Origin: Candidatus Saccharimonadota bacterium
Lineage (GTDB): Bacteria; Patescibacteriota; Patescibacteriia; 2-12-FULL-60-25
Direction of reading: 5' to 3'
NCBI GenBank assembly: GCA_023898425.1
Contig: CP060222.1
Span: forward strand, 900,001 to 932,000
Length of the DNA stretch: 32,000 nucleotides
Part shown: piece by piece, positions 5,272 through 16,966 of the stretch
Numbering within the stretch: position 1 is the first letter of the stretch
How the letters are laid out: each line of letters begins with the position of its first letter
Position numbers and translations under genes: made by a program
Notes under the pieces: generated by a model
What the model saw: only the letters and a program-made list of their open reading frames with translations
What the model was told of the DNA's origin: nothing
The model's database searches: none

Positions 5272-8200
5272 TTAGAATTCAGCTGGAGGCGCAGCATCCC
5301 AATTTTCTTCTTCATTTGCTGCTGGCGTTGGACGTGTGCGGAAGTGCTCTGGTTTTGGCGAGCTGTCTTCGAGACGTTCACCGTTTTTAAGCAATTCGAC
5401 ATCAAGACCTAAGCCCTTCAACTCACGAACGAGAACGTTAAAGGATTCTGGCACATTCACCTTTTTAATTGGCTCACCTTTGATAATTGCTTCGTAGGCT
5501 TTTGAACGTCCAGGCACATCATCAGATTTAATCGTCAAAATTTCTTGAAGCGTATGTGCAGCACCGTAGGCTTCGAGCGCCCACACTTCCATTTCACCAA
5601 AGCGCTGACCACCAAATTGCGCCTTACCACCAAGAGGTTGTTGCGTAATCAATGAGTATGGACCGATAGAACGTTGGTGAATCTTGTCTTCAACCATATG
5701 GTTGAGTTTCAACATATAGACCATACCAACCGTTGGATCATGATCATATTTTTCACCGGTACGACCATCATAAAGAGGGATTTGACCGTCTTCTGGGAAG
5801 CCGGCGCGAACAAGCTCTTCACGAATCGTTTCTTCTGGAACACCGTCAAACACTGGCGTTGCCACCATATATCCGAGAGCATTTGCTGCTAGACCAAGAT
5901 GCGTTTCGAGCACCTGACCCAAGTTCATACGAGAAACAACACCAAGCGGCGAAAGAATAATGTCGACAGGAGTACCGTCCTCAAGGAAAGGCATATCTTC
6001 GACCTTAACGATACGAGAGATAACACCCTTGTTACCGTGACGACCTGCGAGCTTATCACCAACTTGAATCTTACGAAGATCTGCAACCGAGACAACGATT
6101 TGTCGTAAAACACCTGGCTGCAATTTGTCACCGTTATCGCGTGAGAAGACTTTTACATCAACCACTTTGCCTTTTTCGCCGTGCTCAAGATACATAGAAG
6201 AATCGCGAACATCGCGTGCCTTCTCACCAAAAATAGCACGAAGAAGTTTTTCTTCTGCAGATAGATCCGTCTCACCCTTTGGCGTGATTTTACCAACAAG
6301 AATATCACCGGATTTTACTTCTGCACCGACGCGCACAATACCGTGCTCGTCTAAGTGGCGGAATTTTTCTTCTGAAACGTTTGGAATATCAGACGTCACA
6401 ACTTCTTCGCCAAGCTTTGTATCACGTACGTCTAAGGTGTGATGCTCAATGTGGATCGAGGTAAAACGATCTTCATGAACAAGACGCTCAGACAAAATAA
6501 TAGCATCTTCATAGTTATAACCATCCCATGACAAGAACGTCACGAGAAGATTTTGACCAAGAGCGAGCTCACCATGTTGTACGGATGTACCATCAGCGAG
6601 AACTTCACCAGCATAAATCTTTTGTCCTTTGTTTACCGTCGGACGGAAGTTTAAACACGTGGAGTGGTTAGAGCGTTGGAACTTTGCGAGTTCATAACGA
6701 CGAATAGCGCCGTCCTCACCCTGCAATTCAACCAAGTTACCCGAGACACCAACAATCAAACCATCGACAGGAGCGATGATGGCATGACCTGCATCAATAG
6801 CCACACGTCGTTCGACACCCGTACCAACAATTGGAGCATCAGGCTTGATACAAGGAACCGCCTGACGTTGCATGTTTGTACCCATGAGAGCGCGGTGACC
6901 ATCATCATGTTCAACAAACGGAATGAGTGACGTACCAACTGAAAGAATATGCTTGGATGAAACATCAACATAATCAATCTCGTGAACATCAACAATCGTA
7001 GGCTCGCCGTTTTTACGCGCAGGCGTACGTTCGTGCATAAACTTACCATTCTTATCGATAGCTGTTGTTGCAGGTGCTGTTGTACCGCGTTCTTCTGTGA
7101 ACGCGTTCAAGTAAATAATTTCACTTGTTACGGTAGGCACCACTGGCAATTTATCAATCGAAACTTTTGTGAGTTTTTCTGCAAGTTTCTTGTCGACTTC
7201 TTCCCCTGCTTTTGCCACTTTTTTGCCTTCGCCGTCATTAATGTCAACGCGCAATACTTCGCCGATAGCATCTTTACCGTCATTTTTTGCCCAGTTTTTT
7301 ACAAGACGGTATGGCGCTTCGATAAAGCCATATTCGTTGATACGCGAATAACTCGCCATGTGACCTACGAGACCGATGTTTGGACCTTCAGGTGAAGCGA
7401 TCGGACAAATACGGCCATAGTGAGTGCGATGCACATCACGAACATCAAAGCCCGCACGTTCACGCGTAAGACCACCAGGACCCATCGCGGACAAACGACG
7501 CTTATGCTCAAGTTCCGCAAGTGGATTTGTTTGCTCCATGAATTGCGAAAGCTGTGAACTCATGAAGAATTCGCGAATCGCACCAATCACCGGACGTGCA
7601 TTAATCAACTTTGCTGGGTTGATATCGTTCATGTCCATGGTGGACATACGATCTTTGACGATACGCTCCATACGAGCAAGACCAATGCGGAAACGACTTT
7701 GAACAAGCTCACCTACCGCACGCACACGACGATTACCCAAGTGATCAATATCATCGGCTTCGTCTTGTGAGACATTGAGCTGAATCAATTCGCGCAACAA
7801 AGCAATTACGTCTTCTTTTGAAAGAATGCGGTTTTCTTCTTTTGCAACAAAGTCATGCTCAGCATTGGCATTAAAGCGCTTGTTGAATTTGTAACGACCT
7901 ACTGCAGACAAATCATAACGATCGAAGTTAAAGAACATCGAGTGAATGAGTTGTTTTGCATTTTCTGCCGTTGCGAGATCACCAGGTCTGATACGTTTGT
8001 AGACTTCGATATACCCTTCTTCTTCGCTAGAAGAAACGTCTTTTGCCAAGGTAGAATCAACGTATTTGTTTAATGGATGGATATCAACATCTTGAAGAGC
8101 CTCGCGGATCTGCTCATCTGAACCCAAACCAAAAGCACGCAAAAGCGCTGTTGCTGCAACTTTACGTTTACGATCGATTTTTACCCAAAGCACATTGTTT

Positions 8201-8736
8201 GCATCGGTCTCAAATTCGAGCCAAGCACCACGTGAAGGGATAATTTTTGCACCATAGTAACGACGGCTATGCATGGTCTCAGCGGTGAAAAAGACACCGG
8301 CGGAGCGCACAAGCTGTGTGATCACCACACGTTCGATACCGTTCACGATAAAGGTACCGCGATCGGTCATGAGAGGAAGATCTCCAAGGTATACCTCGGA
8401 TTCCTTTTCAAAATTAGAACGCTTATTTGTAAGACGAAGTTTTACACGGATAGGAGCCTCGTAGTTAACGTGTTTCTCCTTAGATGTTTTCTCGTCAAAC
8501 TTTGGTTCGTCGAAATAATAATCAACGAAGGACAATTCGAGATCACGACCGATAAAATCTTTTATCGGTGAGATTTCTTTAAATAAGTCGCGGATACCTT
8601 CTTCAAGGAACCAACGATAGGAGGTTTTTTGCACCTCAATCAAATCTGGCAAGGCCATGGCATCGCGTGCCGCCGTAAAATAACGGCGATCGCGGTCCTT
8701 TGGCTCTTGTCGCTTAAACGACATCGCTTGTGACAT
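5272..8736 (-). CDS. rpoB: DNA-directed RNA polymerase subunit beta
   Basis: 1154-aa ORF with motifs GDKLAGRHGNKGVIS, NMQRQAVP and YNYEDAI. It lies 26 nt upstream of rpoC. Confidence 0.97.
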   Translation of the reverse strand: MSQAMSFKRQEPKDRDRRYFTAARDAMALPDLIEVQKTSYRWFLEEGIRDLFKEISPIKDFIGRDLELSFVDYYFDEPKFDEKTSKEKHVNYEAPIRVKLRLTNKRSNFEKESEVYLGDLPLMTDRGTFIVNGIERVVITQLVRSAGVFFTAETMHSRRYYGAKIIPSRGAWLEFETDANNVLWVKIDRKRKVAATALLRAFGLGSDEQIREALQDVDIHPLNKYVDSTLAKDVSSSEEEGYIEVYKRIRPGDLATAENAKQLIHSMFFNFDRYDLSAVGRYKFNKRFNANAEHDFVAKEENRILSKEDVIALLRELIQLNVSQDEADDIDHLGNRRVRAVGELVQSRFRIGLARMERIVKDRMSTMDMNDINPAKLINARPVIGAIREFFMSSQLSQFMEQTNPLAELEHKRRLSAMGPGGLTRERAGFDVRDVHRTHYGRICPIASPEGPNIGLVGHMASYSRINEYGFIEAPYRLVKNWAKNDGKDAIGEVLRVDINDGEGKKVAKAGEEVDKKLAEKLTKVSIDKLPVVPTVTSEIIYLNAFTEERGTTAPATTAIDKNGKFMHERTPARKNGEPTIVDVHEIDYVDVSSKHILSVGTSLIPFVEHDDGHRALMGTNMQRQAVPCIKPDAPIVGTGVERRVAIDAGHAIIAPVDGLIVGVSGNLVELQGEDGAIRRYELAKFQRSNHSTCLNFRPTVNKGQKIYAGEVLADGTSVQHGELALGQNLLVTFLSWDGYNYEDAIILSERLVHEDRFTSIHIEHHTLDVRDTKLGEEVVTSDIPNVSEEKFRHLDEHGIVRVGAEVKSGDILVGKITPKGETDLSAEEKLLRAIFGEKARDVRDSSMYLEHGEKGKVVDVKVFSRDNGDKLQPGVLRQIVVSVADLRKIQVGDKLAGRHGNKGVISRIVKVEDMPFLEDGTPVDIILSPLGVVSRMNLGQVLETHLGLAANALGYMVATPVFDGVPEETIREELVRAGFPEDGQIPLYDGRTGEKYDHDPTVGMVYMLKLNHMVEDKIHQRSIGPYSLITQQPLGGKAQFGGQRFGEMEVWALEAYGAAHTLQEILTIKSDDVPGRSKAYEAIIKGEPIKKVNVPESFNVLVRELKGLGLDVELLKNGERLEDSSPKPEHFRTRPTPAANEEENWDAAPPAEF

Positions 8737-9030: not shown

Positions 9031-9059
9031 ATATTAACAAGAAAGAACCGTCAAGTCAA
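9031..9059 (-). promoter_or_regulatory. sigma70-type promoter reading toward rpoB
   Basis: Minus strand: TTGACT (9059-9054), 17-nt spacer, TAATAT (9036-9031). Confidence 0.5.
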
Positions 9060-9218
9060 GCGAATGGTTATAACGAACCTTTTTGTCAATTTTGGCTGTA
9101 GAAAGTCAAAATTGTGCTTTTTCACTATAGAAATAAAAGCGATTATCCACAGAGTCATTACAGGACCCTTTATTAACGATCGAGTCGTGTTATAGGATGA
9201 ATAGTGACAACACGTATG

Positions 9219-9247
9219 TTGACAATAATACTGTTTTAGTATATATT
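9219..9247 (+). promoter_or_regulatory. near-consensus sigma70 promoter P1
   Basis: TTGACA (9219-9224), 17-nt spacer, TATATT (9242-9247). Confidence 0.6.
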
Positions 9248-9310
9248 ATGCAGGCACATTTCTCATTTTCGGCGAATTGCCAGAAAGAAGGTCCCGTGGA
9301 GGAATTGATC

Positions 9311-9985
9311 ATGAAGAACGGTGTGTGGAAGCACAAGCCCCCGACCGAGAAGATCCCCAAGCAGACCATCCGGCATCACGCCACCTTCCGTCGACTGGAT
9401 ATCTGGGAGACCCGTGAAAACGAACGCAACGCGTTCAACGGAGATTCGGCCGAACTTCAGCGGAAAATGATCCGCTTGGAAGATCAGCTCGAGGCTGGAT
9501 ACATGGACGAAGAGTCCATCCTCAAGGCGCTCGAGCGCATCACTCGTGAGATCAAAGATCTGATCAACGAGGGCAATCGGATCCTCTCGAACCAGAGAGG
9601 CTACCTTGGTCTCGCGCTGGAACTGGATACCATCTACATCCAACTCCAGACATGGAAGACCTGGATCAAGCCCCTGAAACGCCAACTGCGCAAGCAGAAG
9701 GCCACGGTCTTCATCATGAAGATGAAAAAGGCAGAACGCGACCTCGACGTGTTCGACCCCACTCACGCCCCGCAGATGTGGCGCGCCAAGCTGATGCTTC
9801 CGCGCAAGCCGGGTCGCTGCGGGTACAAGAGCGCGCACTACTTCATCCCGGGCAAGCACAAGCACACCCGGGTTGAGCGGTCCTTCGTCGAAGAAAGCCG
9901 CTACGGCAAGAAGGGCCAGCGCTACAGCGCGGCTCGCAAAGAGCGCGAAGACGAGCGCATGACGCTCATCAGCCAAATGGCCTAG
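9311..9985 (+). CDS. orphan protein A (224 aa), coiled-coil-like middle, basic C-terminal module shared with protein B
   Basis: GGAGGA SD at 9298-9303, 7 nt before the ATG at 9311. GC3-biased frame. The track start at 9197 lies in the AT-rich promoter, so I moved the start. Confidence 0.6.
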   Translation: MKNGVWKHKPPTEKIPKQTIRHHATFRRLDIWETRENERNAFNGDSAELQRKMIRLEDQLEAGYMDEESILKALERITREIKDLINEGNRILSNQRGYLGLALELDTIYIQLQTWKTWIKPLKRQLRKQKATVFIMKMKKAERDLDVFDPTHAPQMWRAKLMLPRKPGRCGYKSAHYFIPGKHKHTRVERSFVEESRYGKKGQRYSAARKEREDERMTLISQMA

Positions 9986-10003
9986 CACTTTTCAACACTG
10001 CTG

Positions 10004-10046
10004 AATCCCCCACTCACTGCTGAGTTGGGGGATTTTGCGTTTTTTA
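10004..10046 (+). terminator. intrinsic terminator after protein A gene
   Basis: AATCCCCCACTCA / TGAGTTGGGGGATT stem followed by TTGCGTTTTTT. Confidence 0.65.
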
Positions 10047-10073
10047 GACACTGTGTTTATGACAATTAAAATA

Positions 10074-10102
10074 TTGACAAATTATTATAAATAAGCTATC
10101 TT
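10074..10102 (+). promoter_or_regulatory. near-consensus sigma70 promoter P2
   Basis: TTGACA (10074-10079), 17-nt AT-only spacer, TATCTT (10097-10102). Confidence 0.55.
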
Positions 10103-10123
10103 GTACCGGTACATTTTAGGCGA

Positions 10124-10633
10124 ATGTCGCCAGATTGGAGTCTAATGTCGAGCAACGAGAAGTCCTGGAACGACATGTCGATGGATGAGCCCCTCGATGA
10201 CGCGGGGTATAACCCCAGTCTATTCGAGGACTTCGACTTCGATGATTTCGACGATCATCATGAGTACGATGATCATTTCGAAGATACCTTCAGGGATGCC
10301 TTCGACGAGTTCGAAGACTACCCCAAGGAGACCGCCTCCTACATCGACAAGCTCGAGGAGGAGCGCAAGGACTGGGAGTTCGAGGTCGAAGCATGGGCAG
10401 AACAGCTCGAACTTCTCGATCCCACTCTGGATCCGAAGATGTGGCGCGCACGCGAAGGCTGTGGCACCAATTGCTTCAACTTTGTGCCTGGCACGGGCAA
10501 GAAGCTTGACGTCCAGTCGTGCCGCAACTACGGTCATCGCTCCGGCTACAAGCCCCGTCTCCGCAATAAGGAGCGGATGCGTGAACGCGAGATCTGGCGC
10601 GAACGTCAGCTCGAACAGGCCTTCAGCGCCTGA
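10124..10633 (+). CDS. orphan protein B (169 aa), extremely acidic N-terminal half, C-terminal module paralogous to protein A
   Basis: GC3-biased ORF. An alternative start at ATG 10145 is preceded by GGAG. Shares DPTxxPxMWRA and CGxxxxxF(I/V)PGxxK motifs with protein A. Confidence 0.6.
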   Translation: MSPDWSLMSSNEKSWNDMSMDEPLDDAGYNPSLFEDFDFDDFDDHHEYDDHFEDTFRDAFDEFEDYPKETASYIDKLEEERKDWEFEVEAWAEQLELLDPTLDPKMWRAREGCGTNCFNFVPGTGKKLDVQSCRNYGHRSGYKPRLRNKERMREREIWRERQLEQAFSA

Positions 10634-10643
10634 CACTACTACA

Positions 10644-10697
10644 AGCCCCGCCTCTAACCACATTCTGTGGCTTAGAGGCGGGGCTATTTGTGTTGTG
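10644..10697 (+). terminator. intrinsic terminator after protein B gene
   Basis: 14-bp perfect stem AGCCCCGCCTCTAA / TTAGAGGCGGGGCT followed by ATTTGTGTTGTG. Confidence 0.6.
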
Positions 10698-10709
10698 TAA
10701 ACAATCATC

Positions 10710-10738
10710 TTGACAGAATGTCGATAATAGGCTATATT
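10710..10738 (+). promoter_or_regulatory. near-consensus sigma70 promoter P3
   Basis: TTGACA (10710-10715), 17-nt spacer, TATATT (10733-10738). Confidence 0.55.
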
Positions 10739-10771
10739 CTCACCGTGTTTACCCACGTCGCCGATGGCGAA

Positions 10772-11293
10772 ATGGTCGGTCAGGTTTCGCGCCTGGCTCA
10801 ATACAAGAACCTTTTGCTCCGTGATCAACTCACGGACGATCCCAAGCTTCGGATGTTGGGCGAGCTCGCACTCGTGACCGACATCACGAAGAAGCTCTTC
10901 GCAGAAAAGGGTGCCAATCCACCCTTGAAACTGCTCTACACTCTTCTATCGTTCACGTCTGAGATGGACGAGAATGATGAAGACTGTTGGGTGCAGTGGG
11001 AGGAACTCCCCGAAGAGAAGCGTCTTCTCACGGAACTCCGTTGGGATCTCGAGGCCATGGAGCCCAACTCGTGCTACTGCGCGCGTTGCCGTGGTGTCGA
11101 GGAAGACGACGTCCCGCCCCTCAAAGTCTTCACGCCTACCGCAGACATGCGCTTGGCGGCGAAGAGGGAGAAAACGCTCCGCAATGGCGGGCGGCGGGTA
11201 CGGCGGAGCACGAATGAGGACGAGGCTGAAGAGCTGACTCCGAAGCGTAGCCTTCGCGACTTTCGTCGCGGAGCCGACTCCGTTTCCTGGTGA
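10772..11293 (+). CDS. orphan protein C (173 aa from ATG 10772; start uncertain)
   Basis: GC3-biased ORF downstream of P3. The track start at 10688 lies upstream of the promoter. Contains a CYCARC cysteine cluster and a basic tail. No family recognised. Confidence 0.5.
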   Translation: MVGQVSRLAQYKNLLLRDQLTDDPKLRMLGELALVTDITKKLFAEKGANPPLKLLYTLLSFTSEMDENDEDCWVQWEELPEEKRLLTELRWDLEAMEPNSCYCARCRGVEEDDVPPLKVFTPTADMRLAAKREKTLRNGGRRVRRSTNEDEAEELTPKRSLRDFRRGADSVSW

Positions 11294-11300
11294 GAAACTG

Positions 11301-11352
11301 ACCCTGTCCCAAACTGTGATCTTCATGGTTTGGGACGGGGTCTTGTAATTTC
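11301..11352 (+). terminator. intrinsic terminator after protein C gene
   Basis: ACCCTGTCCCAAAC / GTTTGGGACGGGGT stem followed by CTTGTAATTTCT. Confidence 0.55.
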
Positions 11353-11386
11353 TGCATACTTTCTCCCTCGATGCCCCCTACCCCTG

Positions 11387-11416
11387 CCCCTTCTACCTTT
11401 GTGGAGGGGGTTTTAT
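11387..11416 (+). terminator. second terminator-like hairpin
   Basis: CCCCTTC / GGAGGGG stem followed by GTTTTATGG. Confidence 0.35.
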
Positions 11417-11438
11417 GGTAAAAATAAACCCTATATAC

Positions 11439-11467
11439 TTGATTTTTTGTCAAAAATATGCTATACT
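11439..11467 (+). promoter_or_regulatory. sigma70 promoter P4a
   Basis: TTGATT (11439-11444), 17-nt spacer, TATACT (11462-11467). Confidence 0.45.
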
Positions 11468-11525
11468 TATATCGTAATACAGTGACGTATGGATGCACTT
11501 TCAACCCATATATTAGACATATAAC

Positions 11526-11537
11526 GCTAATATTAGC
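11526..11537. promoter_or_regulatory. perfect 12-bp palindrome, candidate operator
   Basis: GCTAATATTAGC is its own reverse complement. A related half-site, CGCTAATGTTA, lies about 30 nt downstream. Both sit between P4a and P4b. Confidence 0.3.
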
Positions 11538-11583
11538 CAAATATAATAAATAATCGCTAATGTTATAAAAGAAAAGCATTAAC

Positions 11584-11612
11584 TTGACAGTTTATACGGT
11601 ACATGGTATAGT
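11584..11612 (+). promoter_or_regulatory. near-consensus sigma70 promoter P4b with extended -10
   Basis: TTGACA (11584-11589), 17-nt spacer ending in TGG, TATAGT (11607-11612). Confidence 0.6.
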
Positions 11613-11618
11613 AATACG

Positions 11619-11763
11619 TCGAGGATGAAACAGCCTTACATTTAAAGAGCTAGTCACAGTGGAGAGCTTGGACAGCAATGAACGAACTTACCGGCCATTA
11701 GGGCTAGGTGTAGCGATTATTGTTTTGCTCAATTCACTTGTGACGTTATCAACGTCATTTTTT
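11619..11763 (+). ncRNA. candidate small RNA of about 145 nt (P4b to first terminator)
   Basis: Predicted TSS is about 7 nt after the -10. No ORF. The region ends in a TGACGTT-ATC-AACGTCA hairpin plus TTTTTT (11741-11763). Confidence 0.35.
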
Positions 11764-12247
11764 GTTGTCTTGATCGTTTTGGAGGAGGCAAGCAGATGAA
11801 CGATGTGAGAATCCGGTTTCGACTGGGATCTCTCATCTGCAATCTGTTACGGATTCAACCGCTTCGGCGGATTTGAGCCACTTCTCGTTGGATCTTTATC
11901 CGATGAGTCGCCGCCTCTAAAACGATCATCGCAACAGAGAAAGACGGGTGGAGAAGAACCTCACAGGCAACCGAACATGGTGCGTCTGTGAGCGGTAGGC
12001 AAAATTAGACTCGGTGGTTTCGACTGCCAACTCTAACATGTAGCCCACCACACGCAGGCAATGCCCTCGGGTATTCGCCCGCCTCTTCTTCAACCGTCTT
12101 TCTCTCGTTCACCATCATCCTGCTTTCATTTCTATCTCTGATCCTTTTGCTCCACGAATGCGTTCGTGCCAGCCAAGAGTTGATCGAGAAAGAAATGAGA
12201 GCGGGACGTGCGATTTTGCACCTTACAGTCCGCTCCAAAGGCAAAAG
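11764..12247 (+). ncRNA. long GC-balanced non-coding stretch; candidate structured RNA or 5' leader of the downstream operon
   Basis: No plus-strand track ORF of 60 codons or more starts between 10988 and 12146. The sampled line at 11881 is about 48% G+C, unlike the AT-rich spacers. Helices: cUUCGg hairpin 11859-11870, CTCACAG/CTGTGAG 11960-11992, GGTGG/CCACC 12013-12049, and a hairpin at 12057-12079. Confidence 0.35.
11796..11876 (+). CDS. 26-codon sORF (MNDVRIRFRLGSLICNLLRIQPLRRI) with strong SD; possible leader peptide or small toxin-like peptide
   Basis: GGAGGAGG at 11781-11788 lies 7 nt before the ATG at 11796. Too short to judge coding potential. Confidence 0.25.
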   Translation: MNDVRIRFRLGSLICNLLRIQPLRRI

Positions 12248-12481
12248 ATGTCCAAGAAGATCACCCTTTCGATCTGTGCCTTCTTCTTCACCGTCGTCGG
12301 CGCGATGCACTTCATCGATGTGCCGAACACCAACGAGGAGGAGATCGCGGCGATCAAGAACGGTCGCATCTGCCACCGCGAGAGGTGCACCTTCCTCAAC
12401 GGGCCCTTCACGGGATACGTGAGGTACCAAGTGGATGAAACAGGGTTCATCTATGTCTCTAACGGGACAGCGATGAACTGA
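12248..12481 (+). CDS. small membrane or secreted protein (77 aa)
   Basis: ATG at 12248. N-terminal hydrophobic segment KKITLSICAFFFTVVGAMHFI. GC3-biased frame. Weak SD (AAAGG). Confidence 0.5.
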   Translation: MSKKITLSICAFFFTVVGAMHFIDVPNTNEEEIAAIKNGRICHRERCTFLNGPFTGYVRYQVDETGFIYVSNGTAMN

Positions 12482-12484
12482 GAG

Positions 12485-12623
12485 TCTGAATCCGACATCA
12501 CGAATACTCGTGCTCTGTCGGACTCCCAATCTTGATCAGAACGAATGTTGTGACCAAGACATGGAGTTACAATCCTGCTCTCACTTTTTTGACCGACATC
12601 GCTCGGTACAAAAAGCGAGAGCG
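12485..12623 (+). repeat. intergenic repeat copy R1 (139 nt)
   Basis: Near-identical to 13551-13688. Begins with the hairpin TCCGACA-T-CACGA-ATAC-TCGTG-CTC-TGTCGGA immediately after the upstream stop codon. Confidence 0.85.
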
Positions 12624-12671
12624 GGAACCCCAAGTACAAATTCGTACATTCACACCCGTTCAAAGGAAACT

Positions 12672-13544
12672 ATGACCAAAATCAATTTCGTGCTCGCGTC
12701 TAACCACACCAACCTCGCCACTGCCATCGAAGGCAAGGCGAGCGCCACGGTGGAGGCTGAGTTCGGCGACATCACCGTCGCTGGCTCGGTGCTCACCATG
12801 GCGCATCACGGCGTCAATGCGGGTAACCGCGCGCCGTGCGCGTACCCCAACGGGTGCGCGGAAGGCGTCGAGGTGGTGGGTTTGTCCCACTTCGACCTCG
12901 ACACCCTCGGTGGGTGTGCGGCCGTCATCGGTCGCAAGCCGGAGGCCGAGAGCTTCTGGATTCTCTCCGAGTTCGTGGACCTTAATGGTCCGCACAAGCT
13001 CGGTGTGAGCGGCGCGTCCGACGAGGACATCCGCCGCCTCAACGCCTTCTGGGCGTGGAGCGAAAAGAACCGAGTGTTCGCCAACCGCGACGGCTCGGTG
13101 TCCGACGTGACCGACAAGGTCATCGAGGGCATCGAAGCGCTCGAGAGGATCCTCGCCGACGATGAGCAGATGCTCGTCGCGGGCGACGAGTTCAAGGCGA
13201 AGGGCGACAAGCTCAACGCCGAGAGCTTCGTCGAGTACTACGAGGATCTCCTCGTCCGAGTTTCGCCGAGCTTCACCAACCACCTCTACGTCGCCCCCGA
13301 CGGAAAGGTGGCCAAGGCCGTCATCGCCTTCAACACCCTCAACGGCTCGATCACGATCTCGTTCGCGGATGCGCCCAAGGGCACGAACGCGCGCGACATC
13401 GTGCAGAAGCTGTGGGGGCCCGAAGCTGGCGGTCACGCTGGCATCGCTGGCAGCCCGCGTGACAAGCGGTTGAACCTCGATGACCTGAGCGAAGCGCTCA
13501 GCGCGACGATGCTCGCGCTCGACGAAATGGACAACATTTCGTAG
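12672..13544 (+). CDS. divergent DHH/DHHA1-like phosphoesterase (290 aa), assignment tentative
   Basis: SD AAAGGAAA before the ATG at 12672. SHFDLDTLGG resembles DHH motif I (H..D.D..G). C-terminal GGHAGIAGSP resembles the DHHA1 GGGH..A.G motif of NrnA/RecJ-type enzymes. A canonical DHH triad is not obvious. Confidence 0.45.
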   Translation: MTKINFVLASNHTNLATAIEGKASATVEAEFGDITVAGSVLTMAHHGVNAGNRAPCAYPNGCAEGVEVVGLSHFDLDTLGGCAAVIGRKPEAESFWILSEFVDLNGPHKLGVSGASDEDIRRLNAFWAWSEKNRVFANRDGSVSDVTDKVIEGIEALERILADDEQMLVAGDEFKAKGDKLNAESFVEYYEDLLVRVSPSFTNHLYVAPDGKVAKAVIAFNTLNGSITISFADAPKGTNARDIVQKLWGPEAGGHAGIAGSPRDKRLNLDDLSEALSATMLALDEMDNIS

Positions 13545-13550
13545 AGCAAC

Positions 13551-13688
13551 CTGGATCCGACATCACGAATACTCGTGCTCTGTCGGACTCCCAATCTTGA
13601 TCAGAACGAATGTTGTGACCAAGACATGGAGATAAATCCTGCTCTCACTTTTTTGACCGACATTGCTCGGTACAAAAAGCGAGAGCGG
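13551..13688 (+). repeat. intergenic repeat copy R2 (138 nt)
   Basis: Differs from R1 by one A/G, one C/T, and TTACAA versus ATAAA (a 1-nt indel). Confidence 0.85.
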
Positions 13689-13727
13689 TACGTGCAATCA
13701 CGCACCTTAAAACACGCTCCGGAGATT

Positions 13728-13937
13728 ATGGAAAATTCCATTTCCCGGTCCGAGGCGCGCCACGTGCTCGCCTCATACATGAACGAGGGTGCCCGGCACC
13801 CCCTCTTCACGGAGGCGTGCGCGATCTGTCGCACGACTCCGGAGGCGGTCGAGGCCGCGCGCAAAAGCGTGCGTGGCATCGAGCGCTCGTTCAAGGGAGT
13901 GATCCTCACTCCCTTGGGCGGGCGTCGTCGCAACTAG
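13728..13937 (+). CDS. orphan protein (69 aa)
   Basis: GGAG SD 3 nt before the ATG at 13728. GC3-biased. The track start at 13575 lies inside repeat R2. Confidence 0.45.
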   Translation: MENSISRSEARHVLASYMNEGARHPLFTEACAICRTTPEAVEAARKSVRGIERSFKGVILTPLGGRRRN

Positions 13938-13959
13938 CGACACGACCTCGCACACCTCA

Positions 13960-14000
13960 CTGGATCCGACATCACGAATTCTCGTGCTCTCTCGGACTCC
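13960..14000 (+). repeat. partial repeat copy R3 (hairpin module only, 41 nt)
   Basis: CTGGATCCGACATCACGAATTCTCGTGCTCTCTCGGACTCC matches the first 41 nt of R1/R2 with 2-3 substitutions. Confidence 0.75.
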
Positions 14001-14062
14001 TCCTCTTGTTTATGACATGTCGTCGTAAGCAAGAACGGGAGATATCCCAGAAAGGTTAAGCC

Positions 14063-14329
14063 GTGGAAACAATAAACTCAAATATCAAACGCGGGCGAGA
14101 ACTCATCCATGACGCTGGCCGTCTGGGTGGTCTCGTGGAGAGCGGGTTTCCTCAGTCGAGGGATCTCGCAAATAAACTGCGTCGCATCGCCACGAAGAGC
14201 GATGACGTGCACAGCTGCATCCTTGCCTACGTTCAGGCACAGGGCAACAAGCTCACGGGCACAGAGCGGCGTGGCTTGCAGATTCTTCTTACTCATGAAG
14301 AATTTGCCCAGATCGTGAGCTCAAACTGA
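14063..14329 (+). CDS. orphan protein (88 aa), GTG start
   Basis: GAAAGG SD 7 nt before the GTG at 14063. Ends in tandem TGA TGA stops. Confidence 0.45.
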   Translation: METINSNIKRGRELIHDAGRLGGLVESGFPQSRDLANKLRRIATKSDDVHSCILAYVQAQGNKLTGTERRGLQILLTHEEFAQIVSSN

Positions 14330-14514
14330 TGAGCAATCTGAGTAGAGGCGAAAGACAGTCACTCTGATTTCGCTCCCTCAATCCGTCCATGATTCATTCG
14401 TGGATGAAGAAGGGAAAAATATCTACGCAGCTACCAACAAGGAGGTTGGTGGCGTCGCGGGTATTTTTGCCCGAAAACAAAACAGGCGTAAGGTCTGAGA
14501 AAGTTAAGGTCGTC

Positions 14515-15123
14515 ATGAGCATTGCCATCGCAATAGCCATCGTTCTCATGGAGGAATTCAGTGTGATGATTGGTCAACAGCTGATCATCCAAAGCATGAT
14601 CGACCGCATCGACAAGGTGCGTCGCCATGCTCTCAATCACATTAACGAGCCGAAAATTCTGCTCGATGAAACGTGGTTGATCCCAACGCATGAGTTGTGC
14701 GACGTGCTAGGCGTAGACTCACTGGAAGAGATCCTCTCTTCCAAAATCCGAGGTATTGCGCTCGCACTCGCAGGAAAGAAAGAGTATCATCCTCGTTCGA
14801 TCGCGGGTGGTGCTGAGCAACTCATGGAGTTGCTCCGACCGGCGGCTGATGAAGAGCAGGCGGAAGATGAACGTAAATTACGCAATCGGATTCTCGGTCT
14901 CGCCGCGCGCTATCTGTCAGCATCCGTTGAAGAACGGACAAAGATACTGATTTCTTTGGAGGGCAGTCGAACGCGGGCGCTTAGTGACACTGAGGAGGTA
15001 ACCGAACTCGTACGACTCAGGATCAACGCTGATCACGAGTATGAGCGAGTCTCAAAACAACTCCGTAAACTTCAGGTAAAAAACGGATCACTCCTGAACC
15101 GGAATGTGATCCTCGATGCCTGA
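14515..15123 (+). CDS. orphan protein (about 200 aa; start ambiguous among 14515, 14548 and 14563/14566)
   Basis: Long ORF, helical and charged sequence. GGAGGA at 14550-14555 favours the 14563/14566 starts. No family recognised. Confidence 0.45.
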   Translation: MSIAIAIAIVLMEEFSVMIGQQLIIQSMIDRIDKVRRHALNHINEPKILLDETWLIPTHELCDVLGVDSLEEILSSKIRGIALALAGKKEYHPRSIAGGAEQLMELLRPAADEEQAEDERKLRNRILGLAARYLSASVEERTKILISLEGSRTRALSDTEEVTELVRLRINADHEYERVSKQLRKLQVKNGSLLNRNVILDA

Positions 15124-15231
15124 GTGAACAAGATCTCACGCTCCACACTCATCTCTACCGAGAAGAGGTACGGAGACTCAAAAACAATTCGCTCGAGAAA
15201 TACGAAATCAAGAGCAGCAACAGGAGGCCTC

Positions 15232-15408
15232 ATGAGCTACGTTAGCGCCGCGTTCACCGTGGCATACAATCGCACCTGTGAAGATCTGACCGAAGAAACG
15301 GTCAAGATCGACACAGCACGTCTCGCTGAAAAGCTCGAAGAGAGCGGCGAGTACGACATGGCCATTCGGCTGCGTCGTTCGTCTCGGCCCCCTGGGCCGA
15401 GCAACTAG
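15232..15408 (+). CDS. orphan protein (58 aa)
   Basis: AGGAGG at 15222-15227 lies 4 nt before the ATG at 15232. The track ORF starts earlier, at GTG 15124. Confidence 0.4.
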   Translation: MSYVSAAFTVAYNRTCEDLTEETVKIDTARLAEKLEESGEYDMAIRLRRSSRPPGPSN

Positions 15409-15417
15409 ATGAATCTA

Positions 15418-15460
15418 CTCGGAGGTGTACTATTGCGAACTGCTTTAGTACACCTCCGAG
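15418..15460 (+). other. 13-bp perfect hairpin after the 58-aa ORF (terminator-like, no T-run)
   Basis: CTCGGAGGTGTAC (15418-15430) pairs with GTACACCTCCGAG (15448-15460). Confidence 0.6.
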
Positions 15461-15476
15461 ACCCCCTATTACACTA

Positions 15477-15580
15477 AGCGATATGGAGGAGGCACCTCAA
15501 CAACTTGTTGGGGAAGACAGGCTATTCCTCGGCTGCGGCTGAGCAATTCTCTCCCCCGTCCCATCACCTCCATATCGCTT
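15477..15580 (+). other. long-range 14-bp helix enclosing a 76-nt structured insert (leader of the 398-aa ORF)
   Basis: AAGCGATATGGAGG (15477-15490) pairs perfectly with CCTCCATATCGCTT (15567-15580). Internal hairpins: CAACA-ACT-TGTTG and CTCGGC-TGCG-GCTGAG. Confidence 0.5.
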
Positions 15581-15668
15581 CGTGGAATATCGAAGCAACC
15601 CTCCTCGGGTTTAGAGGAAAAAACGTTCCTTAAAATCCGCAAAGCGGAAGAAAAAGAAAGAGAAAAAA

Positions 15669-16865
15669 ATGTCCCTCAACTTCAGCATCACCAGGAATCC
15701 CAATATCCTTTCGGCGGCAGCCGGTCGTGAGGTGAGTCAGGAGGAGACGAATGACATCGTCGCTCCCCTGGACCACCACTGCGGAGCTCAGTACGAACTT
15801 CGCAACAACCGCCTTTTGCGGCGGCTACAGCTCCAGATCTTCGCCTGCTTGTTGCTGGCGAAGGAAGAGATGTTCGACATGAGCGATGAGCTCATCGAAA
15901 GCAACGGCCTCGACCCCGTTCTTGCGGGGTTCATGAAGGGGCAGGTCCTCAACCAGCGCAGCACGAAGTTGCTCACCATGGTCGACAACCAGGGCGAGCT
16001 CTTCACGCCCCCCATGTTCGTGATGAACATGAACGACCTGACGAAGCCCGGTCGCAAGGATCGTCCGGTCCGCCGTGTGTGGGTGGACGCTCACAACTTC
16101 GATCGCGTCACGGCCAGCAATGGCCAGGTCTCGTCGCGACCAAACCGCGTTGGTACGTTCATGCAACGCGTCAACACGCACGGCACCTTCGAGAACGGTG
16201 GTGAGCGCGACGCGCTCATCATGGGCTTCAGGCCTGAGTTCGAAGAGCGTCGTGACACGGCCGTCATCACGAGCAAGGATCAGGTTCTGAAGAGCTACAT
16301 CCTCCTGGTCGTCGGCGCCAACCTCGATCTGCTCATGCAGATCGTGGACATCGCCGGCGACAGCGTCGCGCCGATGTTCTTCGGTGGCGAGGTAGACCCC
16401 AAGATGGCCTACTTCGGTCCCGTGGAGGTCCAAGACACGAAGGTGTCGACCGACCCGAAGCTCAAGATGGACGAGATCCGCGAGAAGGTGAAGAGCACGA
16501 AGCTGACTCACACCATGGCTCAGGACCTCGAGGGCGTCGTGATCGACGACGAAGACGAGTCGCCCGAGGATAGCTCAGACGACGTGAGCGACGACCTCAG
16601 CGCCAGTGATGGCAACGAGGACGAGACCTCCGATGCCTCCTCGACCGAGGAGAGCGATGGTGACATCGCTCCGCCGGTCGCCAACGAGAAGCGGAGCGAC
16701 GCTCCGCTGACGGCGAAGCAGAAGCGGATGCTCGAGAACAGCGAAGAAGGCAAGACGCCCTCCACTCCTCCCGCCACGACGAAGAAGCCCAAGAAGGCTT
16801 CGACGCCTAGGCAGAAGAAGGGGCTCGAAGACCTGGAAAACGTTCAGCTTCCCAGCGCCGAGTGA
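15669..16865 (+). CDS. orphan protein (398 aa) with acidic Ser/Asp-rich tail followed by a Lys-rich end
   Basis: GC3-biased ORF preceded by a purine-rich leader, GAAGAAAAAGAAAGAGAAAAAAATG. No family recognised. Confidence 0.6.
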   Translation: MSLNFSITRNPNILSAAAGREVSQEETNDIVAPLDHHCGAQYELRNNRLLRRLQLQIFACLLLAKEEMFDMSDELIESNGLDPVLAGFMKGQVLNQRSTKLLTMVDNQGELFTPPMFVMNMNDLTKPGRKDRPVRRVWVDAHNFDRVTASNGQVSSRPNRVGTFMQRVNTHGTFENGGERDALIMGFRPEFEERRDTAVITSKDQVLKSYILLVVGANLDLLMQIVDIAGDSVAPMFFGGEVDPKMAYFGPVEVQDTKVSTDPKLKMDEIREKVKSTKLTHTMAQDLEGVVIDDEDESPEDSSDDVSDDLSASDGNEDETSDASSTEESDGDIAPPVANEKRSDAPLTAKQKRMLENSEEGKTPSTPPATTKKPKKASTPRQKKGLEDLENVQLPSAE

Positions 16866-16912
16866 CCTCACCGCTCCGATTAGCAACTGCTAATCGTTGA
16901 GCAAAAAAACTG

Positions 16913-16958
16913 ACCCCCAGTGTATACCGTATGGTGTACTCTGGGGGTTTTCGTTTTT
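16913..16958. terminator. bidirectional intrinsic terminator at the right island boundary
   Basis: ACCCCCAG...CTGGGGGT extended stem flanked by AAAAAAA upstream and TTTTCGTTTTT downstream. It lies between convergent genes. Confidence 0.7.
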
Positions 16959-16966
16959 CTCTCTTT

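Follow-up and report, generated by a model that had tools for sequence, protein, structure and literature searches.

Is a repeat that recurs between the genes of a single bacterial island a switchable leader for each of these genes, or does it represent another kind of intergenic element? This question is raised by a stretch of 32,000 nucleotides from a Candidatus Saccharimonadota bacterium (GenBank assembly GCA_023898425.1, contig CP060222.1, positions 900,001 to 932,000; hereafter the window), in which an initial annotation, made from the letters alone, had described two long copies (R1 and R2) and one short copy (R3) of a repeat with a proposed switch function. The candidate phyla radiation (CPR, Patescibacteria) is uncultured, and next to nothing is known about its gene regulation or its exchange of accessory genes. 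The locus is a compact example, in which one promoter and leader are followed by an array of ORFan and cargo genes and every gene is bracketed by portable hairpin modules. These modules are conserved above synonymous sites and coincide with the breakpoints of strain-level turnover, and we conclude that they are structured intergenic cassette-junction repeats, which are a known kind of element, here in an uncultured phylum.

Two separable modules at stop and start codons

Both long copies were recovered by a repeat search of the window, R1 at 12486-12624 and R2 at 13551-13688. In a global alignment they agree at 135 of 140 positions (96.4%), the one-base TTACAA/ATAAA indel included, which is close to the identity of about 95% given in the initial annotation. 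R3 starts at 13960 and agrees with the long copies at 38-39 of its first 41 nt. The pattern of the first hairpin (HP1) occurs three times in the window compared to 0.00 expected occurrences in 100 dinucleotide-preserving shuffles; the repeat is real and non-random. Its placement is also as described before, since HP1 begins 9, 11 and 27 nt past the stop codons of the 77-aa, the DHH-like and the 69-aa gene, and the copies are located upstream of the DHH-like, the 69-aa and the 88-aa gene.

The repeat consists of two separable modules, a 3' module associated with stop codons (M1) and a 5' module associated with start codons (M2). M1 begins with CTGRAT and continues with HP1 (UCCGACA-U-CACGA-loop-UCGUG-CUC-UGUCGGA), whose conserved internal loop is asymmetric, with U on one side and CUC on the other, and with an abutting second hairpin (HP2), which is closed by CUCC/GGAG and has a variable interior; its distance from the preceding stop codon is 9-27 nt. 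M2 is composed of HP3, an irregular hairpin of about 20 bp with the base CYCGCUCUC/GAGAGCGGG and a variable interior of 25-90 nt, followed by a small hairpin (HP4), a YCCGCUC box, the Shine-Dalgarno (SD) sequence and the start codon. The long repeat stops exactly at the 3' arm of HP3 (GAGAGCGG), and HP4, box and SD sequence further downstream differ gene by gene.

Copies with M1 only, with M2 only and with both modules are all present, always after stops or before starts. Covariance models of the two modules, which can also be used for finding further copies elsewhere, each identified exactly three copies in the 32 kb, M1 at 12491-12568, 13556-13633 and 13965-14043, and M2 at 12119-12249, 12574-12675 and 13638-13733 (Table 1); apart from weak reverse-strand palindrome echoes and a weak match at 14347-14416, neither model found more in the window. 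The first of the M2 copies, which is 5'-only (HP3, HP4 and box) and lies upstream of the 77-aa gene, had been overlooked in the initial annotation. R3 had been taken for the first module only, with a length of 41 nt. Indeed, its HP1 is kept in sequence, but HP2 is kept as well, as a hairpin with a different inner sequence, and the match spans the full length of the M1 model.

Table 1 Features of the cassette operon in the window. Positions refer to the window, bit scores to the covariance models of the modules.
Feature	Position	Strand	Evidence or remark
Sigma-70-type promoter, TTGACA-17-TATAGT with TG before it	11584..11612	+	Last promoter-like site before the cassette operon
Conserved structured leader, about 490 nt, with internal terminator (11740-11765) and leader ORF (ATG 11796)	11618..12110	+	89% mean column identity
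M2 only: long HP3 variant, HP4, CCGCUC box, SD	12119..12249	+	Covariance model, 76.4 bits; fold
77-aa cassette gene, predicted membrane peptide	12248..12481	+	Unrelated 112-aa gene in its place in L016
R1 M1: CTGAAT, HP1 (12491-12522), abutting HP2 (12523-12568)	12486..12568	+	Covariance model, 79.2 bits
R1 M2: HP3 (12574-12625), HP4 GUAC/GUAC, box CCCGUUC, SD AAAGG, through ATG 12672	12574..12675	+	88.7 bits
DHH/DHHA1-like phosphoesterase cassette gene, 290 aa, cargo	12672..13544	+	Homology, predicted fold
R2 M1	13551..13633	+	Covariance model, 79.0 bits
R2 M2: HP3, HP4 GUGC/GCAC, box ACGCUCC, SD GGAG, through ATG 13728	13638..13733	+	97.9 bits
69-aa core gene, in all island variants	13728..13937	+	80% amino-acid identity to L001
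R3 M1 without M2: HP1 sequence kept, HP2 a 13-bp hairpin of different sequence	13960..14043	+	84.9 bits
88-aa core gene	14063..14329	+	Comparison with relatives
Canonical bidirectional intrinsic terminator (A-run, GC hairpin, U-run) closing the operon	16912..16958	.	z = −9.8

Both modules are conserved as RNA structures

Folded as single copies, R1, R2 and R3 reach z scores of −7.9, −7.2 and −4.6 against shuffled sequences, and the minimum free energy (MFE) and centroid structures of R1 and R2 are alike, consisting of three independent hairpins. Covariation was analysed with 18 distinct copies of M1 and 19 of M2, drawn from 14 related loci. In hand-checked MAFFT alignments 94.0% of the M1 cells and 94.6% of the M2 cells are paired, which decreases to 22-53% when the 3' partners are slid by 1-3 columns. 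The model-fitted alignments gave 93.1% for M1, compared to 23-40% with slid partners, and 96.5% for M2. Changes on both sides were observed for eight pairs in M1, two of which belong to HP1, i.e. 1-32 (UA to CG) and 5-28 (AU to GC), and M2 contributes seven compensatory pairs, so that 15 base pairs carry compensatory changes in total, as expected for a cis-acting RNA. In addition, the interiors of HP2 and HP3 are swapped wholesale among the copies and the hairpins are nonetheless retained.

The conservation acts at the nucleotide level, as had been claimed, and the repeat is structured and non-coding. The shared N-terminus of the ORFs beginning at GTG 12510 and GTG 13575 is no real peptide, and both represent spurious N-terminal extensions; in the first case this is also apparent from the homologues of the DHH-like protein, which have about 283-293 aa and begin at ATG 12672.

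Within the helices, the gene strand shows 32 G·U cells compared to 11 A·C cells (about 3:1), and a U49-G61 wobble is retained in 16 of the 18 M1 copies. This bias points to the sense strand, i.e. to the mRNA or an equivalent single DNA strand. Between orthologous sites of the window and L001, which is the metagenome-assembled genome (MAG) JAMIEW01, HP1 is 88-91% identical, HP2 72% and M2 64%; for comparison, the third codon positions are 73% identical in the 69-aa gene and 47% in the 88-aa gene. HP1 is thus constrained in sequence, including the asymmetric loop, which suggests that it is read by a specific, putative protein partner. For HP2 and HP3, the constraint concerns mainly the shape. 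Upstream of the 77-aa gene, HP3 is unusually long and carries CACGAAUGCGUUCGUG at its tip (12153-12168); this closely resembles the HP1 apical stem-loop (CACGAAUACUCGUG) and could represent another copy of the putative protein-binding motif.

Searches against Rfam 15 returned 0 matches at gathering scores and, within the island, only sub-threshold chance matches with E values of 0.1-0.8; genes for tRNA or tmRNA were not found either.

The modules are confined to one island and bound its cassette turnover

The island, a hypervariable ORFan region that the analysis places in a Candidatus Magasanikbacteria genome, extends from about 9050 to 16960, has a GC content of 52-61% and carries all of its genes on the plus strand. 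It is flanked by ruvC, rpoC and rpoB on one side and by a RodZ-like gene, ftsK, sugar-nucleotide genes and comEC on the other, at about 44% GC. The same island is located at the same site in L016 (JAGQLA010000001.1, assembly GCA_020429715.1), a Candidatus Magasanikbacteria MAG, with a DHH-like protein that is 94% identical. A third locus, L008, again carries it at this place; here rpoB is 85% identical to the window at the nucleotide level, rodZ/ftsK 77% and the island genes 71-82%. Overall, no fewer than three diverged lineages have the island in the interval from rpoB to rodZ/ftsK.

A pattern scan of species-representative genomes identified one other MAG, L001, and a metagenome scan yielded 14 loci, of which nine are syntenic fragments of the island and five (L005, L010, L012, L013 and L014, each with a single match to a loose HP1 pattern) are chance matches. 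Activated sludge and anaerobic digesters are the source habitats. Three further variants (L019-L021) were taken from contigs that encode the closest DHH-like proteins. By covariance models, no copy of a module was detected outside the island, either in about 24 kb flanking it in the window or in the host sequence on either side of it in L016 (a locus of 20.9 kb), nor in 13 viral loci and two other CPR loci with the same DHH-like gene. Exact-pattern scans of viral contigs for HP1 gave 0 matches, and the whole island had no blastn match in phage and plasmid collections. Literature searches did not find such repeats described in CPR. The claim that the repeat is private to the island thus holds as far as the metagenomes and about 40 kb of host flanks show, and the suspicion that it could be a genome-wide REP-like repeat was not borne out, all nine true metagenome matches being syntenic with the island.

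Within the island, at least five cassette arrangements occur among the relatives. The window has the order g77, DHH, g69, g88, and L016 the order g112, mini-ORF unit, DHH, g69, g88. L001, L006 and L008 share TM113, g122, three mini-ORF units, g115, g156, g69 and g88, and L007 has a g112-like gene, three mini-ORF units and g115. In L004 and L021, the same upstream units are followed by DHH, g69 and g86, and L019 and L020 show leader, M2, DHH and M1, then, further on, M2, g127, M1+M2 and g69.

The closest comparison is that between the window and L016, whose sequences agree to about 100% as far as 12105 and then once more from 12486 onwards. In the segment that separates the first M2 from R1, g77 of the window corresponds to g112, an extra M1 and a mini-ORF unit in L016. 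A second diverged block spans 14470-15350 (46-86% identity per 50-nt window, mostly 55-75%) and is flanked by two structured intergenic regions, 14330-14517 and 15409-15671, which are 100% identical in both genomes, with the genes located in between at 14515-15408. From the sequence comparison, this block looks like an allelic replacement anchored in conserved, RNA-like intergenic regions. Furthermore, positions 1-600 of L011 contain a tandem duplication of M1+M2 together with the 69-aa gene, whose junction lies in the 20 nt common to R2 and R3, inside the 5' half of HP1. A misassembly is unlikely, as a single-nucleotide polymorphism distinguishes the two copies of the gene. Variable genes are flanked, and insertions and deletions between relatives are bounded, by copies of the modules.

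The DHH-like gene is the best documented cargo. Its family comprises 824 matches across CPR and also occurs on 22 IMG/VR viral contigs. A search of PDB sequence profiles returned nothing for the protein, and it was placed only by a fold search, in which the AlphaFold2 model (pLDDT 95.8) had RecJ-like proteins, NrnA and GdpP as top Foldseek matches; according to this model, it folds as a DHH/DHHA1 phosphoesterase. Since viral loci and other CPR islands with this gene are devoid of M1 and M2, the cargo does not bring the modules along. For another island protein, of 398 aa, only two homologues were found.

The mini-ORF units mentioned above (three at L001 3456-3859, one at about 9750-9800 in L016, none in the window) lie between an M1 and the next M1+M2. 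Each consists of a purine-rich SD sequence (AAGRAAGMRG) and a 6-codon ORF (MHFSRR, MKISRG or MYFSCG) whose stop codon is located inside a GC hairpin, and their conservation looks nucleotide-level.

A proposed role in RNA maturation and cassette exchange

A consensus scan identified near-perfect sigma-70 promoters at 9219, 10074, 10710 and 11584, and no sigma-70-like promoter on the plus strand between 11613 and 16900. Terminators with a U-tract are located at 11300-11342, 11386-11411, 11740-11758 (within the leader) and 16912-16958 (at the end of the island). Between 11613 and 16900 there is no intrinsic U-tract terminator at the modules, only the leader-internal one at 11740, and nothing terminator-like was seen at HP1, HP2 or HP3; HP2 abuts HP1 and is itself followed by UUACAAUCC. 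The remaining intergenic regions of the operon are strongly structured as well (14330-14517, z = −4.8; 15409-15671, z = −7.5). The simplest reading is that of one long, heavily structured polycistronic RNA, in which the genes would be co-transcribed and the modules would represent internal punctuation.

Besides the three hairpins, one alternative pairing is conserved, which differs from those proposed in the initial annotation. The invariant 3' arm of HP3 (GAGCGGG) can pair with the CCGCUC box, which lies right before the SD sequence, and this pairing is kept in 97.6% of the cells; seven cells at three pair positions have a one-sided change, all of them C-to-U with the wobble retained. When enforced in full-length leaders, the arm-box helix costs 5-12 kcal/mol relative to HP3 and thus does not represent an equilibrium switch. 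In RNAs that start in the HP3 loop, it forms spontaneously in five of six leaders. For most leaders, the SD region is largely unpaired; of the seven that were folded, five have a mean unpaired probability of about 0.5-0.7 and two of 0.22-0.37. In these folding models, the arm-box pairing appears as a possible processing-dependent refolding.

Based on these results we propose, with the balance of chances about even, that the modules are intercistronic elements for RNA processing, stability and translation that also serve as recombination anchors. A single mRNA would run from the promoter at 11584 via the leader of about 490 nt and the cassettes to the terminator at 16912. M1 would act as a protein-recognised double hairpin that marks the cistron boundary and blocks 3'-exonucleases, and not as a terminator, and M2 would provide each cassette with a standard leader. 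HP3 might be cut by a putative RNase III-type, double-strand-specific endonuclease, after which the invariant 3' arm GAGAGCGGG could re-pair with the box and form a protective 5' stem-loop beside the free SD sequence. At the DNA level, either as a by-product or as a second function, the modules would offer shared homology for insertion, deletion, replacement and duplication of cassettes; one crossover of a resident element with a circular or allelic segment composed of leader tail, DHH-like gene and element would then yield the arrangement R1-DHH-R2. The conserved strand-specific structure and the module-bounded turnover of cassettes are much firmer than the steps of cleavage and stabilisation, which are drawn by analogy. 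If the modules are indeed processing or translation signals, newly acquired genes would find a reusable expression context in the island.

Several points weigh against this proposal. The two strands of R1 hardly differ in how well they fold (z = −6.8 for the minus strand), so that the energies fail to separate them and it is only the wobble bias that decides the strand, with cells that are not independent of each other. The diversity of the copies stems from few lineages, roughly three clades plus paralogues, and the paired percentages of the final alignments are inflated, as these were fitted to the model structure. The HP1 stems are nearly invariant and therefore provide only two covarying pairs. 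The two cells that break the arm-box pairing both belong to R2 of the window, in which it is down to 5 bp. Finally, no RNA-binding protein or nuclease is identifiable among the island proteins.

Possible transcription signals at the modules

A first alternative is that the modules resemble the promoter-early stem-loop (PeSL) cassettes of phages, in which case a non-canonical polymerase or sigma factor would use M1 as a terminator and M2 as a start site. The modules share with PeSLs the same place between small ORFan genes of a hyperplastic region and the same modular shuffling (PMC2839356, PMC4122927), and a distant CPR or phage-like locus, L048, carries 6-7 copies of a hairpin plus UUUUAGGUAUAAGAAUAUG between small genes. 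However, none of the modules contains sigma-70-like hexamers, although the island's own promoters are near-consensus, HP1 and HP2 are devoid of the U-tract found at the real terminators of the operon, and the invariant GAGAGCGGG is buried in a hairpin. We therefore regard this alternative as unlikely. A possible promoter of the extracytoplasmic function (ECF) type after HP3 (GGAAC...CGTAC) was rejected, having a spacing of 14 nt and a motif that is missing from the other copies.

Similar repeats in other CPR loci

Another alternative sees in the modules an analogue of integrons without IntI, i.e. the cis signals of an unrecognised gene-cassette system of CPR, whose hairpins would be read by a dedicated, putative protein. 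Such a system would combine one riboswitch-like leader and promoter with exchangeable, promoterless ORFan cassettes and with stop- and start-associated hairpins in RNA or single-stranded DNA, and the dedicated protein would serve the capture of cassettes or the maturation of the polycistronic RNA, with cousins in L045, L047 and L048. This alternative appears improbable to us; if a recombinase or RNA-binding protein does read the modules, a new cassette system would be at hand.

L045, a Magasanikbacteria island, contains a second island-private family of like architecture and unrelated sequence (8413-8525, 9240-9390 and 10240-10320), in which the conserved hairpin CCGAUGACG...CGUCGG directly adjoins one that is closed by UCCCUC/GAGGGA and has a variable interior of 25-95 nt (z = −6.6, −6.1 and −3.0). 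In L048 (2841-6600), the 6-7 copies consist of a stem-covarying hairpin and the UUUUAGGUAUAAGAAUAUG that follows it, and they lie between small same-strand ORFan genes around a DHH-like gene; judged by sequence, they are a candidate for a terminator-plus-start cassette of the PeSL type or of the type of start-associated sequences (SAS). In L047, two 179-nt direct repeats (5715-5893 and 7080-7258, 88% identical) bracket the DHH-like gene, and each comprises a 22-aa hydrophobic mini-ORF (MIYQITYIASAIGTLGFMLGLS) and two hairpins. In the handful of loci sampled, this suggests that private structured repeats are a wider habit of CPR accessory islands.

The DHH-like gene itself (L045 7155-8036, L046, L017 and L047) has 58-67% GC and 67-75% nucleotide identity across distant CPR genomes, and since the host flanks in L045 have only 25-39% GC, a strongly GC-rich gene pool circulates among AT-rich CPR genomes. 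In L047 the gene adjoins a Cas_csx3 ring-nuclease-like gene, and in both L045 and L047 it is located downstream of a TrmB-family regulator.

Upstream of the cassette operon, the left part of the island in the window contains two paralogous ORFan genes (9197-9985 and 10124-10633), which share a C-terminal 'LDxxDPTxxPxMWRA...' region (repeat at 9743-9786 and 10406-10449), and a third gene at 10688-11293. Two of the three promoters at 9219, 10074 and 10710 are located inside the starts of mechanically listed ORFs, so the true starts are farther downstream. L001 (1133-1492) carries a low-GC, hairpin-flanked DUF559/Vsr-like endonuclease gene upstream of the leader promoter, an insertion which also occurs in L006, L007, L008, L019 and L020 and which the window is devoid of.

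Alternative pairings and the leader

According to the initial annotation, each element would be a riboregulator or attenuator that toggles mutually exclusive helices and thereby turns the downstream gene on or off upon a signal. Its description of the repeat is essentially right, and the mechanism is without support as stated. The second CCGACATC and the internal CGCTC, which were proposed as competitors, are located in the variable interior of HP3, which in the L001-type copies reads CUAACGACAACGUUAG or CCGAACAUCGG and contains neither of them. These competitors are used neither in the MFE nor in the centroid structures, and covariation backs the three hairpins instead.

What remains in favour of a switch is the conserved three-box layout of CCCGCUCUC, invariant GAGAGCGGG and CCCGCUC beside the SD sequence, with its highly conserved arm-box pairing, and the ability of the CUCC after HP1 to pair either with an upstream GGAU or with the HP2-closing GGAG. 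On the other hand, HP3 is not only more stable than the arm-box helix but is also transcribed first, and this alternative is coupled to neither a terminator nor SD sequestration. The modules have no conserved junction resembling a ligand pocket, the sole invariant unpaired bases of M1 being U8 and CUC, and no match in Rfam. Comparable exclusive helices coupled to a terminator or to sequestration of the SD sequence, as in riboswitches and attenuators, were thus not found in the modules, and we consider a switch function quite unlikely.

A better candidate for a switchable leader than the modules is the operon leader itself (11640-11770), which could represent a new riboswitch or attenuator for the whole operon. 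The whole leader of about 490 nt (11618-12110) is conserved above the island genes (84-100% nucleotide identity), has no match in Rfam, and was predicted by RNAalifold to contain 163 pairs, ten of them compensatory, in three domains. A long-range helix of about 20 bp closes the second domain, and another one the third. Within the first, AGUCAC (at about 11652) pairs with GUGAC (11740-11744), which excludes the intrinsic terminator at 11740-11758 with its U-run, and the anti-terminator and terminator helices have one compensatory change each.

The leader also contains, in the region 11780-11876, a short ORF with a strong SD sequence (GGAGGAGG) and ATG 11796. It has 14 codons in the relatives (M-N/D-x-V-R/G-I/L-R-F-R-L-G/E-S-L/F-I/V-stop) and runs over 26 codons in the window, where the TGA is lost. 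Its SD sequence is sequestered by a long-range helix with CCGCCUCU at about 11910.

Site-specific recombination and selfish repeats as unlikely alternatives

The turnover of cassettes could also result from site-specific recombination of DNA, in which HP1 would fold in single-stranded DNA, like attC sites or IS200/IS605 ends, and a recombinase from elsewhere would move the cassettes. The island consists of small, promoterless, same-strand genes, each followed by a conserved imperfect hairpin with an asymmetric internal loop, cassette content and order vary among strains, the junction of the L011 duplication falls within HP1, and HP1 is constrained in sequence besides its pairing. Against this, no tyrosine recombinase (IntI included), serine recombinase or HUH recombinase was found among the ten island proteins of the window in Pfam, PHROGs and NCBIfam, the sole match being a weak coiled-coil one to phrog_95 (E = 5e-4). 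Apart from this coiled-coil/integrase-profile match and a sub-threshold DHHA1 match, these proteins had no assignment in Pfam, PHROGs, PADLOC or NCBIfam. The attC cores RYYYAAC (R'') and GTTRRRY (R') are missing from R1, R2 and the M2 copy, and a chance GTTAAGC at 14055 lies outside the hairpins. The attC sites range from about 57 to 141 nt, and HP1, with its 32 nt, is well below. Moreover, the breakpoints between the window and L016 have no fixed point, the left one lying at an M2 and the right one at an M1, and on both sides of the second hypervariable block (14470-15350) there are conserved but unrelated intergenic regions, which fits general homologous recombination. We therefore judge site-specific recombination to be quite improbable.

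It is highly unlikely that the repeats are selfish or neutral, i.e. a mobile element resembling REP sequences or miniature inverted-repeat transposable elements (MITEs), or intergenic DNA duplicated along with the cassettes: R1 and R2 flank one inserted gene at 96% identity, as after a recent duplication or insertion, but there are no terminal inverted repeats (best end-to-end inverted match 4 nt) or target-site duplications and the flanks are unrelated, the repeats are confined to one island, HP1 is conserved across lineages far above synonymous sites, the interiors of HP2 and HP3 are replaced yet paired with compensatory changes at 15 pairs, and the two-hairpin architecture recurs with unrelated sequence in L045.

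Diversity-generating retroelement template and variable repeats, CRISPR or TIGR arrays, retrons and small ribozymes were likewise rejected, because a reverse transcriptase is missing, the spacing between genes is 400-1000 nt, the interiors of the hairpins form palindromes, and no unpaired bases other than U and CUC are invariant.

Comparison with known systems

The analogues nearest to the modules are PeSLs, SAS with their extended form, and the RNase III sites of phage T7. The PeSLs of T4-type phages consist of a sigma-70 promoter and a terminator stem-loop (Arbiol et al. 2010, PMC2839356; Comeau et al. 2014, PMC4122927). Like these, the modules are short conserved intergenic cassettes that surround small ORFan genes of a hyperplastic region; insertions, deletions and replacements between close relatives are accounted for by recombination among the copies, and a gene between two copies is the expected product of circle reintegration. 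Unlike PeSLs, they contain neither a promoter (R1 and R2 have TTGACC without a -10 element at 16-18 nt) nor a U-tract terminator, they are longer (about 80 + 100 nt, with four hairpins), and they are located inside one operon of a chromosomal island and not in phage genomes.

The SAS and extended SAS (ESAS) of Cluster K mycobacteriophages include inverted repeats (ESAS) without RNA covariation, for which DNA-binding sites were favoured by the authors (Pope et al. 2011, PMC3203893). They resemble the modules in being element-private repeats in one orientation just before the starts of non-structural genes of different families, with an SD sequence, extra conserved bases beyond the pairing with 16S rRNA and an inverted repeat upstream. 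In contrast, HP3 and HP4 covary as RNA, the box is CCGCUC here and GGGATAGGAGCCC there, and the island has a separate stop-associated module.

The intercistronic RNase III sites of phage T7 are similarly irregular hairpins of about 20 bp between the cistrons of long early and late mRNAs, and once they are cut, the mRNA upstream ends in a stabilising 3' hairpin, and the ribosome-binding site downstream can be remodelled. HP3 contains internal loops and 18-20 bp, and in sequence the element described here is not similar to the T7 sites. It is bipartite, with a sequence-invariant HP1 that resembles a specific protein site, and its cleavage is only proposed.

The repetitive extragenic palindromic (REP) sequences and bacterial interspersed mosaic elements (BIMEs) of enterobacteria are mosaic hairpin motifs in 3' untranslated regions or between operon genes, which can stabilise the upstream mRNA; REP elements number in the hundreds, occur genome-wide and are linked to RAYT transposases. 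In contrast, the modules are confined to one island and have a start-associated half, and dispersed copies were not found, as the nine metagenome matches and the single species-representative match all lie in the island.

The attC sites of integrons are imperfect hairpins with conserved unpaired bases that follow promoterless cassette genes and are highly similar within an array of variable content. The modules resemble them in all these respects; the differences are the missing IntI and R''/R' cores, a hairpin that is far too short, breakpoints that are not fixed, and a wobble bias that fits the transcribed strand.

From these comparisons we conclude that the repeat belongs neither to the attC sites nor to the MITEs, the REP elements or any Rfam family. 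Its evolutionary behaviour is PeSL-like and its start-associated half SAS/ESAS-like, and its proposed biochemistry would be akin to that of T7 RNase III sites combined with REP stabilisers.

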